16,076 nt of DNA from a virus (taxonomy: Duplodnaviria > Heunggongvirae > Uroviricota > Caudoviricetes): IMG/VR virus record IMGVR_UViG_2541047946_000010. The stretch is one strand, 5' to 3'. Positions 5,470 through 10,880 of this stretch are shown here, in pieces (the first letter of the stretch is position 1; each line of letters opens with the position of its first letter). Position numbers and translations under genes: made by a program. The notes under the pieces were generated by a model, which ran no database searches, had not been told where the DNA came from, and saw only the letters and a program-made list of their open reading frames with translations.

Positions 5470-6167
5470 AAAACATCGCCGCACAGATGGTTAACTTTGA
5501 CCGTGAGCAGATGCGTAGGATCGCCAACAACATGCCGGAACAGTACGACGAAAAGCCGCAGGTACAGCAGGTAGCGCAGATCATCAACGGTGTGTTCAGC
5601 CAGTTACTGGCAACTTTCCCGGCGAGTCTGGCTAACCGTGACCAGAACGAACTGAACGAAATCCGCCGCCAGTGGGTTCTGGCTTTCCGGGAAAACGGGA
5701 TCACCACAATGGAACAGGTTAACGCAGGAATGCGCGTAGCCCGTCGGCAGAATCGACCATTTCTGCCATCACCCGGGCAGTTTGTTGCATGGTGCCGGGA
5801 AGAAGCATCCGTTATCGCCGGACTGCCAAACGTCAGCGAGCTGGTTGATATGGTTTACGAGTATTGCCGGAAGCGAGGCCTGTATCCGGATGCGGAGTCT
5901 TATCCGTGGAAATCAAACGCGCACTACTGGCTGGTTACCAACCTGTATCAGAACATGCGGGCCAATGCGCTTACTGATGCGGAATTACGCCGTAAGGCCG
6001 CAGATGAGCTTGTCCATATGACTGCGAGAATTAACCGTGGTGAGGCGATCCCTGAACCAGTAAAACAACTTCCTGTCATGGGCGGTAGACCTCTAAATCG
6101 TGCACAGGCTCTGGCGAAGATCGCAGAACTCAAAGCTAAGTTCGGACTGAAAGGAGCAAGTGTATGA
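5466..6167 (+). CDS. P: Replication protein P (DnaB helicase loader)
   Basis: 233-aa ORF MKNIAAQMVNFDREQMRRIANNMPEQYDEKPQ... recognised as lambda P; its ATG overlaps the O stop (ATGA). Confidence 0.95.
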   Translation: MKNIAAQMVNFDREQMRRIANNMPEQYDEKPQVQQVAQIINGVFSQLLATFPASLANRDQNELNEIRRQWVLAFRENGITTMEQVNAGMRVARRQNRPFLPSPGQFVAWCREEASVIAGLPNVSELVDMVYEYCRKRGLYPDAESYPWKSNAHYWLVTNLYQNMRANALTDAELRRKAADELVHMTARINRGEAIPEPVKQLPVMGGRPLNRAQALAKIAELKAKFGLKGASV

Positions 6168-6527: not shown

Positions 6528-6968
6528 ATGAAAAAACTAACCTTTGAAATTCGATCTCCAGCACATCAGCAAAACGCTATTCACGCGGTACAGCAAATTC
6601 TTCCAGACCCAACCAAACCAATCGTAGTAACCATTCAGGAACGCAACCGCAGCTTAGACCAGAATCGAAAGCTTTGGGCTTGCCTTGGTGACGTCTCTCG
6701 TCAGGTTGAATGGCATGGTCGCTGGCTGGATGCAGAAAGCTGGAAGTGTGTGTTTACCGCAGCATTAAAGCAGCAGGATGTTGTTCCTAACCTTGCCGGG
6801 AATGGCTTTGTGGTAATAGGCCAGTCAACCAGCAGGATGCGTGTAAGCGAATTTGCGGAGCTATTAGAGCTTATACAGGCATTCGGTACAGAGCGTGGCG
6901 TTAAGTGGTCAGACGAAGCGCGACTGGCTCTCGAATGGAAAGCGCGATGGGGAGATCGGGCTGCATGA
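6528..6968 (+). CDS. ninB: NinB (Orf recombination mediator family)
   Basis: 146 aa from ATG 6528 (MKKLTFEIRSPAHQQNAIHAVQQ...), with a purine-rich ribosome-binding site GGGAGAGGGAAG upstream; the ORF-track start at 6510 is a TTG extension; recognised as lambda NinB. Confidence 0.9.
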   Translation: MKKLTFEIRSPAHQQNAIHAVQQILPDPTKPIVVTIQERNRSLDQNRKLWACLGDVSRQVEWHGRWLDAESWKCVFTAALKQQDVVPNLAGNGFVVIGQSTSRMRVSEFAELLELIQAFGTERGVKWSDEARLALEWKARWGDRAA

Positions 6969-7492
6969 CTATCAAATCAAATACGCCAGCACACGACAAG
7001 GACTGCTGGCAAACGCCGCTTTGGCTTTTTGATGCACTGGATATTGAGTTTGGATTCTGGCTGGATTCGGCAGCGAGCGACAAAAATGCTCTGTGCGCTC
7101 ACTGGCTAACTGAGGACGACGACGCGCTCAATTCTGAGTGGGTAAGCCACGGTGCAATCTGGAATAACCCACCGTACAGCAATATCAGGCCGTGGGTGGA
7201 AAAAGCCGCTGAGCAGTGTATACAACAGCGACAGACGGTAGTGATGCTTGTGCCAGAGGATATGTCTGTCGGATGGTTCAGCAAGGCTCTGGAGAGTGTT
7301 GACGAAGTTCGTATTATCACTGATGGACGGATTAATTTTATCGAACCATCGACAGGGCTGGAGAAGAATGGAAACAGCAAAGGCTCCATGCTGCTGATTT
7401 GGCGACCGTTCATCAGTCCTCGACGGATGTTTACTACCGTATCCAAAGCGGCATTGATGGCGATCGGGCAGGGCGTCAGGAGGGCTGCATGA
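6965..7492 (+). CDS. Phage orphan DNA N6-adenine methyltransferase (Dam-like)
   Basis: 175 aa from ATG 6965, which overlaps the ninB stop (ATGA); contains NPPY catalytic motif (WNNPPYS) and an upstream DxFxGxG-like region ([17 protein letters not shown]); occupies the position of ninC/ninD in lambda. Confidence 0.82.
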
Positions 7493-7665
7493 GACGACAG
7501 CGACGAAGCATCACCGACATAATCTGCGAAAACTGCAAATACCTTCCAACGAAATGCTCCAGAAATAAACGCAAGCTAATCCCAAAAGAATCTGACGTAA
7601 AAACCTTCAATTACACAGCCCACCTGTGGGATATCCGGTGGCTAAGATATCGTGCGAGGAAATGA
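7489..7665 (+). CDS. ninE: NinE
   Basis: 58 aa from ATG 7489 ([29 protein letters not shown]...), ATGA overlap with the methyltransferase stop; recognised as NinE; the longer ORF from 7399 in the track is an in-frame upstream extension. Confidence 0.8.
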
Positions 7666-8009
7666 CAATGGATTATTCACAGTTAAGTGATTTTGAAATT
7701 AACAGAATGGTAGGAGACATAATTTTTAAAGGCCTTTGGGCAAGTAAACCGGAAACATCAGGGAATAACACCAACAAATGGTATTACGGAAATGCTGATA
7801 CAACTTTTGAGCCATTAAATCATTTGCCTGACTACTGCAATGATCCGAGCGCTTCATGGCCGATTATTGAGAAATACAGGATTTCTATCTTAGACCAGTT
7901 AACTGAATGGTGTGTGGATGCAAAAGGCGTAAGCCCAATATTTGATACCAGACCTCTCCGCGCCGCCATGATTGTCTTTCTCCTGATGCAGGAGGCCAAT
8001 AATGCTTAG
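7662..8009 (+). CDS. Hypothetical acidic protein of unknown function (nin-region accessory ORF)
   Basis: 115 aa from ATG 7662, overlapping the ninE stop ([26 protein letters not shown]...); translational coupling with neighbours argues for a real gene; no recognisable motif; lambda has no counterpart between ninE and ninF. Confidence 0.6.
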
Positions 8010-8196
8010 CCCATCTCAATCCCTTCAATACCTGAAAGAAAGCATAGAGCGGGCTTCAATGTGCACAGAGTGGATTCTATCTAGGTTTAGCGCATACAGA
8101 AGATTGCCGGTAAAGGGCATGCCAAGCAAGTCGATGCTGCATATGCAAAAGAATGCGCGCTGGAAGGTATGGCGAGAACACAGGTTATGTGGCTAA
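8002..8196 (+). CDS. NinF-like small protein with divergent C-terminus (possible mosaic or frameshifted remnant)
   Basis: 64-aa ORF; the first ~18 residues ([18 protein letters not shown]) resemble lambda NinF, the rest does not; a different frame over 8091-8216 encodes ...[28 protein letters not shown], which I recall as the C-terminus of DLP12 YbcO (DUF1364). Confidence 0.4.
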
Positions 8197-8215
8197 AAGA
8201 GGGGGTTATTAAGGC

Positions 8216-8578
8216 GTGAATACCTACAGCATCACATTACCCTGGCCTCCGAGCAATAATCGCTATTACCGCCATAATCGCGGGCGCACGCACGTCAGCG
8301 CAGAGGGGCAGGCATACCGCGATAACGTCGCCCGAATCATTAAAAACGCAATGCTGGATATCGGCCTGGCTATGCCTGTGAAAATCCGCATTGAGTGCCA
8401 CATGCCGGATCGCCGTCGCCGTGACCTGGATAATCTGCAAAAAGCCGCTTTTGACGCACTCACTAAAGCAGGTTTCTGGCTGGATGATGCTCAGGTCGTT
8501 GATTACCGCGTTGTGAAGATGCCTGTTACCAAAGGTGGGAGGCTGGAACTGACCATCACCGAAATGGGGAATGAATGA
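8216..8578 (+). CDS. rusA: Holliday-junction resolvase RusA
   Basis: 120-aa ORF with GTG start, [41 protein letters not shown]..., recognised as RusA of DLP12/phage 82 type; it occupies the place of ninG/rap in lambda. Confidence 0.93.
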
Positions 8579-8715
8579 TGTTTGAGTTTAATATGGCAGA
8601 ACTTCTTCGCCACCGCTGGGGGCGTCTGCGCTTATATCGTTTCCCCGGTTCTGTTTTGACCGATTACCGAATACTGAAGAATTACGCCAAAACCCTGACA
8701 GGAACAGGAGTATGA
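8575..8715 (+). CDS. ylcG: Small protein YlcG-like (46 aa)
   Basis: Hand translation from ATG 8575 gives [46 protein letters not shown], stop at 8713-8715; overlaps the rusA stop; matches my recollection of DLP12 YlcG; below the ORF-track cut-off. Confidence 0.6.
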
Positions 8716-8800: not shown

Positions 8801-9184
8801 ATGCGTGATATTCAGATGGTTCTTGAGCGTTGGGGTGCGTGGGCGGCTAATAATCATGAAGATGTGACCTGGTCGTCCATTGCCGCCGGTTTTAAGGGAT
8901 TAATTCCTTCAAAAGTAAAATCTCGCCCGCAATGTTGTGACGATGACGCGATGATCATTTGCGGGTGCATGGCCCGTCTGAAAAAGAACAACAGCGATTT
9001 ACACGATTTATTAGTAGATTATTATGTATGTGGTATGACATTCATGTCACTGGCAAGTAAGCATTGCTGCTCGGATGGTTATATCGGGAAAAGGTTACAG
9101 AAGGCTGAGGGCATAATTGAAGGGATGTTAATGGCATTAGATATCCGGTTAGATATGGATATCGTTGCTAATAATTCTAATTGA
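8801..9184 (+). CDS. Q: Late-gene antiterminator Q (short QuuD/phage-21-like type)
   Basis: 127 aa from ATG 8801 with GGAG 7 nt upstream ([24 protein letters not shown]... with Cys-rich [12 protein letters not shown]); the ORF-track start at 8786 is a TTG extension; lies immediately upstream of the late promoter region and lysis genes. Confidence 0.85.
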
Positions 9185-9372: not shown

Positions 9373-10455
9373 TTAGAACTGATAAACCAGACCTACAGCG
9401 ACGATGTCGTCGGTATCAATACCAGCTGTTTTGGTAAACTTACTATCGTCAATTAAGTTGATTTTGTAATCAACAAAAGTAGACATGTTTTTATTAAAGT
9501 AGTAAGTAGCACCGACATCGACATACTTGACTAAGTCTCGGTCACCATGAACACCAAGGTCTTTACCTTTTGACTGAAGGTAAGCAACAGATGGGCGCAG
9601 ACCGAAGTCAAACTGATATTGTGCTACTGCTTCAAAGTTTTGTGCTTTGTTTGCAATATGGTTATTACCAAAAACGGTCATATTCTGAGTTTCAGAATAT
9701 GTGGTAGCCAGATAGATATTGTTCGCATCATATTTCAGGCCTGCAGCCCATACTTCCGCATTTTTGCCGGAGGCATTGAATTTGCTCTTACCATAGGCGA
9801 CCTGACCGTCAGTGCGATCTGATTTAGCATAGGTTGCACCCACGCCGAATCCTTCATACTCATAAGTAGTGGAGAAACCGAAACCATCACCATTGGCTTC
9901 AGTTACGTCAGTGCGGTCATTTTTACCCTGATACTGAGCAGCAAAGTTCAGGCCATCGACCAGACCAAAGAAGTCGTTGTTACGATAAGTTGCAACACCA
10001 GTAGTGCGACCAGTCATGAACACATCTGTTTGGGTCCAGGTATCACCACCGAATTCTGGCAGAACGTCAGTCCACGCACCGATGTCGTATGCTACACCGT
10101 AGTTACGGCCGTAATCGATGGAGCCGTAATCACCAAATTTCAGGCCTGCAAATGCAAGACGGGTTTTGTCTTTGGAAGAACCTTGAGATTCAGCACGGTT
10201 GCCTTTGAATTCATATTCCCACTGACCGAAACCAGTCAGTTGATCGTTGATTTGGGTTTCACCTTTGAAGCCAAGACGGGCATAAGTAGTATCACCATCA
10301 TCTGCATCATTAGAGGAGAAGTAGTGCTTGGCATTAACTTTCCCGTATAGATCCAGCTTGTTACTGTCTTTATTATAAATTTCAGCTGCCTGAGCAGACA
10401 TCGCCATCAGTACTGATGCAGCTACAGCAGAAATTGCCACTGTTAATTTTTTCAT
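9373..10455 (-). CDS. nmpC: Phage-borne OmpC-family general porin (NmpC/Lc-like moron)
   Basis: 360 aa from ATG 10455 with AAGGG ribosome-binding site; signal peptide [23 protein letters not shown] followed by [17 protein letters not shown]-terminal ...VGLVYQF with terminal Phe; classic 16-strand porin hallmarks; the upstream Met at 10515 lacks a ribosome-binding site and is rejected. Confidence 0.92.
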
Positions 10456-10880
10456 TGTACGCCCTTTTTTTGAACTATTATTAAAAAATGATGTCACTGC
10501 GCGATAAATATTCATCTAATCAATGTGATTATTTCAAGATGTAAGTTTTAGTTTCTCATTTAATTTGTGAAGTAGATCTCTATTTTTATCTGAACCTTTT
10601 CTATCTAATCCTATTCATGGCTCTTGTCTGAACAAAAATAAATCTATTAGCTAATTTATATTAATGGCACTTATTTATAAGTGCTCTATAATTCTTTAGC
10701 TTAATTTAAACAAACTAAAAATAACATCGGAAATTATTAACTGATTATTTGTTGAAGTTTTCTTATGTATTTGTGGTGGTGTTTTGAACACTCGGTGGCA
10801 TTCTCACAAATATCATTTAGTAGTTTACGTACGTAAAAAATTGGTTATGCTGTTAAGAGTGGTTACTTCGTCACACAGCT
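10456..10880 (-). promoter_or_regulatory. AT-rich porin upstream regulatory region (promoter not precisely mapped)
   Basis: About 425 bp of visibly AT-rich non-coding DNA upstream of the porin start, contrasting with flanking phage genes; typical of horizontally acquired morons and of porin control regions. Confidence 0.35.

Follow-up and report, generated by a model that had tools for sequence, protein, structure and literature searches.

The nin region of lambdoid phages is known to be shuffled among genomes, and it has been debated whether its joints are caused by illegitimate or by homologous recombination (PMC4118853, PMC3945230). The novel joints of these mosaics are abrupt switches between segments of different phages. 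They usually lie at gene borders, the gene order (orf/ninB ... resolvase ... Q) is kept across them, and they are tolerated in viable phages.

Two small genes of this region are relevant here. NinF of lambda and P22 (Pfam PF05810, PHROG 672) is encoded after ninE or ninX and before a junction-resolvase gene. Its core is Cys-rich and zinc-ribbon-like (CxxC...CxxCC) and is represented by a 25-position Pfam model, which matched residues 20-44 of P22 NinF with 50.4 bits. YbcO (DUF1364) is a putative nuclease of the His-Me finger (HNH) type (PMC5714182) with a structure entry (PDB 3G27). In DLP12 and phage 82, the end of ybcO overlaps the start of rusA in the sequence GTGA.

Here, we analyzed a 16,076-nucleotide stretch of viral DNA (IMG/VR record IMGVR_UViG_2541047946_000010), which is called the window below. 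Its content is the early-right (nin) region of a lambdoid E. coli prophage. The 1.1 kb around the joint described below is 99.8-100% identical to the chromosomes of Nissle 1917, UTI89, S88, APEC O1, and others. The gene order and coordinates were taken from the PGAP annotation of identical genomes and are as follows.

6528-6968: ninB (PGAP)
6965-7492: N6-adenine methyltransferase gene (PGAP)
7489-7665: ninE (PGAP)
7668-8009, + strand: ninX (DUF2591), intact (Pfam Phage_P22_NinX, E = 7e-17; PGAP 'NinX family protein')
8002-8219: the scar, consisting of a 64-aa open reading frame (ORF64) and a ybcO remnant, between ninX and rusA
8216-8578, + strand: rusA, intact (Pfam RusA, E = 7e-23; PGAP)
8575-8715: ylcG (PGAP)
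8801-9184: quuD (PGAP)
9373-10515, reverse strand: porin gene (PGAP)

The porin gene downstream of quuD is intact, nmpC/ompC-like, and encodes 380 aa; its counterpart in the DLP12 prophage of K-12, nmpC, is broken by IS5.

The scar was divided into the following parts.

7990-7995, + strand: AGGAGG, which served ninF as its Shine-Dalgarno sequence and lies 6 nt upstream of the start codon at 8002 (read from the sequence)
8002-8064, + strand: ninF 5' remnant of P22 type, codons 1-21, which stops at the first Cys codon of the zinc-ribbon core
8002-8196, + strand: ORF64, chimeric, with an ATG start
8065-8129, no strand: piece X, 65 nt of foreign DNA that is neither ninF nor ybcO
8088-8090, + strand: TAG closing the ybcO frame upstream of the remnant (read from the sequence)
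8110-8113, no strand: recurrent rearrangement point GGTA|AAGG
8130-8219, + strand: ybcO (DUF1364) 3' remnant, codons 68-96 and stop, without a start codon, pseudogene
8132-8136, no strand: CGATG, microhomology of the X/ybcO joint, common to the Stx-phage form of X and to ybcO
8199-8205, + strand: GAGGGGG, the rusA Shine-Dalgarno sequence inside the kept ybcO remnant, where DLP12 is identical

The borders of these parts were located by nucleotide alignment. Positions 7855-8064 are 93.8% identical to ninX and the initial 63 nt of ninF in P22, but beyond 8064 the similarity is lost; P22 carries AGGACG where the window has AGGAGG. Positions 8130-8700 are 99.1% identical to K-12 DLP12 from the 3' end of ybcO through rusA to ylcG. 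With the ybcO allele of PhiR68_2 (VDAAYAKE), identity begins exactly at 8130, which is Val68 of YbcO, and two substitutions are found farther downstream. The ybcO alleles showed 96-100% nucleotide identity to the remnant, and the E values of the matches (1e-59 to 1e-90) are far beyond chance. ORF64 is therefore made up of 21 codons of ninF, about 22 codons of X, and 21 codons of ybcO in the +1 frame. Its start overlaps the ninX stop by 8 nt, and its stop codon (8194-8196) sits immediately before the rusA Shine-Dalgarno sequence. The ybcO frame is open over 8091-8219, and its first ATG, GTG, or TTG is the Met codon at 8169.

An earlier note on this DNA had reported the 64-aa ORF at 8002-8196, with a NinF-like N-terminus only, and in another frame the C-terminus of YbcO with a stop at 8088-8090 and no start before Met 8169. 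These statements agree with our results, except that the open ybcO frame, which the note had followed from 8091, is derived from ybcO only from 8130. The note had also suggested a recombination scar between a ninF and a ybcO-rusA module that left a chimeric or dead gene right before rusA. Our results support this view: the ORF is chimeric, and the ybcO fragment next to rusA is dead. The single crossover point that the note proposed to find by alignment was replaced by two borders, at 8064 and 8130, with 65 nt of foreign DNA between them.

We consider it very probable that the scar is a non-functional mosaic joint of the lambdoid nin region that was made by two successive illegitimate joins. 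It is an ordinary scar; such scars are well known from lambdoid phages, and existing annotation already lists the ybcO half as a pseudogene. Like the novel joints described above, it switches abruptly between segments of different phages, has one joint with a 5-nt microhomology, and keeps the gene order in viable phages. Unlike the usual ones, its joints lie inside genes and not at borders, two small genes are destroyed, and the two joints are just 65 nt apart. The new points are the three-part anatomy, the link to an allele of Stx phages in which ninF carries a cargo, and a recurrent breakpoint at 8112|8113.

The distribution of X was investigated in 50,697 phage records, 5,426 complete E. 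coli genomes, and IMG/VR, and only two contexts were found. Type A, the arrangement of the window, occurs in 591 of the 5,426 complete E. coli genomes (at least 95% identity), or about 11%, in 27 phage records, and on more than 100 IMG/VR and metagenome contigs. Type B was seen in 250 genomes as well as in Stx1 phages, for example AU6Stx1 and SH2026Stx1; between 8036 and 8136, it has 88% identity to the window.

ORF64 lies where NinF of lambda and P22 is found, after ninE/ninX and before a junction-resolvase gene, and shares the ribosome-binding site and start codon with it. The match to NinF covers the first 21-22 residues; the 58-position profile of PHROG 672 (NinF family) aligned with residues 1-22 only (E = 3.6e-4). 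However, the Cys-rich core (P22 residues 20-44), which is the very part recognized by Pfam NinF, is swapped for unrelated sequence, and ORF64 matched no family in Pfam or NCBIfam. It is a remnant, not a NinF. Because the ninF start signals are retained, ORF64 is probably translated, as a meaningless peptide that stops 20 nt before rusA.

Whether ORF64 could be a functional new small protein, that is, a NinF variant with a new C-terminus under selection, was the most serious of the alternatives, and we regard it as unlikely. The ribosome-binding site is strong and the start overlaps the ninX stop, but the NinF Pfam domain is absent and the final third is out-of-frame ybcO. The 64 codons are open in 99 of the 100 sampled type-A loci, which carries little weight given the low diversity. 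In the same 100 loci, the polymorphism of the ORF64 frame was 14 non-synonymous to 5 synonymous changes, approximately the neutral 3:1; W>G, C>S, E>G, and L>Q were at appreciable frequency, the first three of them at high frequency, and there was no sign of purifying selection. Viable phages also carry ORF64, as do about 11% of the complete E. coli genomes. However, a search of 5.8 billion proteins yielded 20 related clusters, all from E. coli and with 76-100% identity or partial, and many of these are frameshift, deletion, or IS variants. Neither full-length homologues in diverged genomes nor a synonymous excess, as a conserved small-protein family would have, were found. The ninF'-X of Stx phages is mostly stopped at codon 4; 33 of 37 type-B ninF' copies had lost the start codon or carried TAA at codon 4. 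The RefSeq name 'protein ninF' in ev207 and ev099 would favor a function, but PGAP dropped the gene, and its genomes skip a locus-tag number where ORF64 lies. Thus, ORF64 is best read as a by-product that preserves the translation signals of the flanking genes.

We compared how ORF64 is named in RefSeq records (NC_049949 and NC_049953 versus NC_049954, NC_049948, and the PGAP genomes). The annotation is inconsistent, being 'protein ninF' in some RefSeq/nr records, 'hypothetical protein' in others, and absent in the rest. The name 'protein NinF' stands despite the lost NinF domain; the ybcO fragment is correctly flagged.

Two variants of the ORF were also seen. In L085 (IMG/VR), at about 8017-8030, a 9-nt unit TCAATCCCT of the ninF 5' remnant is repeated in tandem to give three copies, an in-frame expansion. 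In P0016 (an ENA contig), the ORF continues as ...TEWIDVYKRQ..., which looks like read-through into a Nextera transposase adapter, and thus like a contaminated contig end and not biology.

The origin of X was explored by means of type B. In AU6Stx1, where the stretch is unannotated, the order is ninE, about the first 50 nt of lambda-type ninF, X, an AT-rich cargo, and the last 42 nt of ninF, after which come an HNH endonuclease gene and ninG. The cargo comprises about 2.7-2.8 kb and contains a 590-aa reverse-strand ORF (PHROG 9230, function unknown). Because X runs on into this cargo and then into the last 42 nt of ninF, X is the left edge of foreign DNA that took the place of the central part of ninF. 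The Stx1 allele and the window have the same ninF breakpoint and the same X (88% over 101 nt). In the Stx1 allele, X leads into the 2.8-kb insert and then into the ninF 3' end and ninG, and its ninF 5' part, which is of lambda type, has mostly decayed. In the window, by contrast, X breaks off after 65-72 nt and ybcO follows.

Some further features of the type-B loci were observed. The AU6Stx1 insert, which replaces the middle of ninF, corresponds to L128 963-3737 (NC_049921 about 15962-18736). Long AT-rich stretches without coding sequence, in which a (TTTCTA)n repeat is found, flank its 590-aa ORF, and ninG carries the HNH endonuclease gene as an insertion at its 5' end. In L114 (IMG/VR), an IS5 is inserted in the type-B X right after CTAGG, equivalent to about 8085 of the window.

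A single direct crossover between ninF and ybcO would require that X is merely diverged ninF or ybcO. This is very improbable, and we consider it already refuted. If X were diverged ninF, it should resemble the ninF 3' parts of lambda and P22, but 311-535 of 1000 shuffled sequences gave local alignment scores at least equal to that of X. The frame over 8091-8129 is open and continuous with the ybcO remnant, and with some DUF1364 genes of Klebsiella and Enterobacter the alignment extends leftward by another 2-3 residues; however, X is unlike ybcO upstream of codon 68, where every intact DUF1364 allele diverges completely. Moreover, it is 88% identical to the Stx1-phage stretch that runs on into unrelated AT-rich cargo. 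Both assignments of X, to diverged ninF and to a DUF1364 allele, were therefore rejected. One promising DUF1364-type match for X (H213) turned out to be a deletion derivative of the same scar, and no further source was found in the phages, the E. coli genomes, or IMG/VR.

The ybcO remnant (8130-8219) corresponds to the last 29 codons and stop of YbcO/DUF1364 of DLP12 and phage 82, with the same GTGA, in which the rusA GTG start overlaps the ybcO TGA. Nucleotide identity and this overlap indicate its descent from ybcO. In contrast to YbcO, codons 1-67 are gone, and with them the Cys and His residues that form the core for metal binding and catalysis, and there is no start codon and no intact ORF. 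The 29 kept residues are the C-terminal helix region only. Pfam YbcO (PF07102) aligned over positions 62-92 of 92 with 17.7 bits, below the gathering threshold of 29.9. The similarity to YbcO is clear, as the earlier note had proposed, and PGAP annotates 8130-8219 in identical genomes as 'DUF1364 domain-containing protein, incomplete, missing N-terminus', a partial pseudogene.

The ybcO frame is at -1 relative to ORF64 and is open over 8091-8219, so that a programmed -1 ribosomal frameshift could in principle produce a NinF'-X-YbcO' fusion. This is hardly credible, because no slippery heptamer (X XXY YYZ) is present in 8091-8196, the fold of 8080-8160, computed as DNA and not as RNA, has a z-score of 0.23 with no strong stem, and the His-Me finger core is missing from the 29 kept YbcO residues. 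An error of sequencing or assembly that breaks the frame of an otherwise intact gene, which has only its general possibility in its favor, has practically no chance. It is already refuted, since the arrangement recurs identically in 568-591 genomes that were finished independently, in 27 phage records, and on over 100 contigs from IMG/VR and metagenomes.

In several strains, full-length ybcO alleles with frameshifts or internal deletions were observed (P0017-P0020), so ybcO decays repeatedly even where it is untruncated. The frameshifted ones end in the same peptide as the ORF64 tail.

The mosaic joint destroys both small genes; the zinc-ribbon core of NinF and the metal-binding and catalytic parts of YbcO are gone. 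It keeps the ribosome-binding site and ATG of ninF and the ribosome-binding site and GTG of rusA. The expression of rusA would stay intact because its ribosome-binding site and start are spared, and we infer that joints sparing the translation signals of their neighbors are those that survive. No promoter, terminator, or unusual fold was found in the scar region. The scar is present in the induced, plaque-forming temperate phages 2G7b, ev017, ev207, ev099, mEp332, 1H12, and PhiR11_1. Therefore, neither NinF nor YbcO is needed for growth, and both are dispensable for viable phages.

The order of the two joins may be explained as follows. In types A and B, ninF is broken at the same point, and both carry the same derived substitutions shortly upstream of the ninF/X border; therefore, the ninF/X joint would be ancestral to both, and the ninF break at 8064|8065 would be older than the join to ybcO. 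Because the type-B X continues into the cargo, a derivation of type A from a type-B-like ancestor is the most parsimonious. In the first join, a foreign AT-rich cargo would have displaced the middle of an ancestral ninF and fused codons 1-21 to X. In the second, a point 65-72 nt into X would have met codon 68 of ybcO in a ybcO-rusA-ylcG-Q module of DLP12/phage-82 type at the 5-nt microhomology CGATG. This would have deleted the cargo, the remainder of ninF, and the first two thirds of ybcO. The proposed order is only the most parsimonious one.

The second joint can be read in some detail. The similarity of the type-B X reaches 8136, the ybcO identity starts at 8130, and CGATG at 8132-8136 is common to both. 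Since X and ybcO share CGATG, this is a microhomology joint, that is, illegitimate recombination; the parents are different, the border is abrupt, and the shared bases are few. Among the 80 best intact-ybcO loci of IMG/VR, no parent with both ninF'-X-cargo and ybcO-rusA was found. In all 80, intact ybcO is preceded by ybcN-ninE and never by ninF or X, and thus the second join was probably made between two different phage genomes.

The left sides of the two types also differ, being P22-type ninX-ninF' in the window, whereas Stx phages have lambda-type ninE-ninF'. The meeting point is a conserved stretch of the ninF 5' part, AAGAAAGC.T.GAGCGGGCTTCA, where the left side would have been swapped by homologous exchange. 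Homologous or relaxed homologous exchange, the general mechanism of which has been described (PMC3945230, PMC2327257), would give such a difference. Across the 100 type-A loci, X has 1 SNP in 65 nt, the ninF part 8 in 63 nt, and the ybcO part 13 in 90 nt. This pattern fits a single recent origin of X, with the flank variation imported from homologous intact alleles. The locus would thus be a dated two-step example of nin-region re-assortment, in which intragenic illegitimate joins are followed by homologous flank swapping.

X also contains a recurrent deletion endpoint, 8112|8113 (GCCGGTA|AAGGGCATGCC), which was found joined to at least eight different partners. In deletion derivatives of type-A prophages, varied left partners meet one right point, ...TA|AAGGGCATGCC. 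The cases are as follows.

Gene P, codon 33, joined at 8113 (L129)
Gene P, codon 47, joined at 8113 (L133, L134)
A cro-like HTH gene, joined at 8113 (L131)
An ea22-like gene, first point, joined at 8113 (L008, L135)
The same ea22-like gene, 23 nt further on, joined at 8113 (L139)
An ea22-side locus, joined at 8113 (L136)
A pL-operon locus, joined at 8113 (L137)
Reverse case, with the left side of 8112 kept and joined to ylcG at 8665 (L163)

The events are independent because the left partners are distinct. In addition, the right-hand haplotypes of L135, L129/L130, and L131/L132 match different canonical type-A haplotypes. When we scanned where homology to the window stops, seven distinct partners converged at 8111; about 27 other positions had one to three loci each. 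The multi-locus stop positions that were checked (6585, 7481, and 7496) have loci that share essentially one left flank.

Two further endpoints were used more than once. The first lies in gene P at about 5561-5567 (GCCGCAGGTA|CAG), with three uses and three partners (L129, L133, L023), namely ninX at 7939, X at 8112, and a cro-like gene; in sequence, this endpoint is similar to the one in X. The second, 8664|8665 in the 3' part of ylcG (GATTA|CCGAATAC), is the endpoint of two deletions, from 8112 (L163) and from about 8188 (P0002), both of which remove rusA. Nearly all breaks are directly 3' of a TA.

It is possible, though we put it forward only tentatively, that 8112|8113 is a site-specific break point that repeatedly seeds large deletions of the early region (ea22 to ninX) in this prophage family, and thus a built-in hotspot of prophage domestication. 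In this case, a nick could lead to the collapse of a replication fork and to repair by 1-4-nt microhomology; such a putative mechanism would fit the fixed end and the asymmetry. No DNA hairpin, promoter, terminator, or Chi was found at the hotspot. The hotspot was used in none of the 36 loci with the Stx-phage form of X, a number that carries no weight either way, and a metagenome scan for non-canonical left flanks found nothing. The recurrent breakpoint is the only lead to possible new biology in this locus. Enzymatic breakage here, if it occurs, would suggest that prophage decay has a source that is specific for a sequence.

One draft genome (GCA_041520495.1; L162 4113|4114) has an IS100 (IS21 family) at 8114|8115, only 2 nt away from the hotspot, and we considered it as a cause. 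It was rejected, because no complete genome carries it at this site and 99 distinct IS100 flanks had no target consensus; an apparent similarity of the flanks was an effect of ranking matches. A GTDB scan for IS100 ends gave 3 loci only.

A different pattern was observed at the 3' end of ninX. There, six loci with six left flanks (L108, L019, L023, L061, L138, L154) lose similarity to the window within 33 nt (7923-7956), which looks like a looser mosaic or deletion boundary zone.
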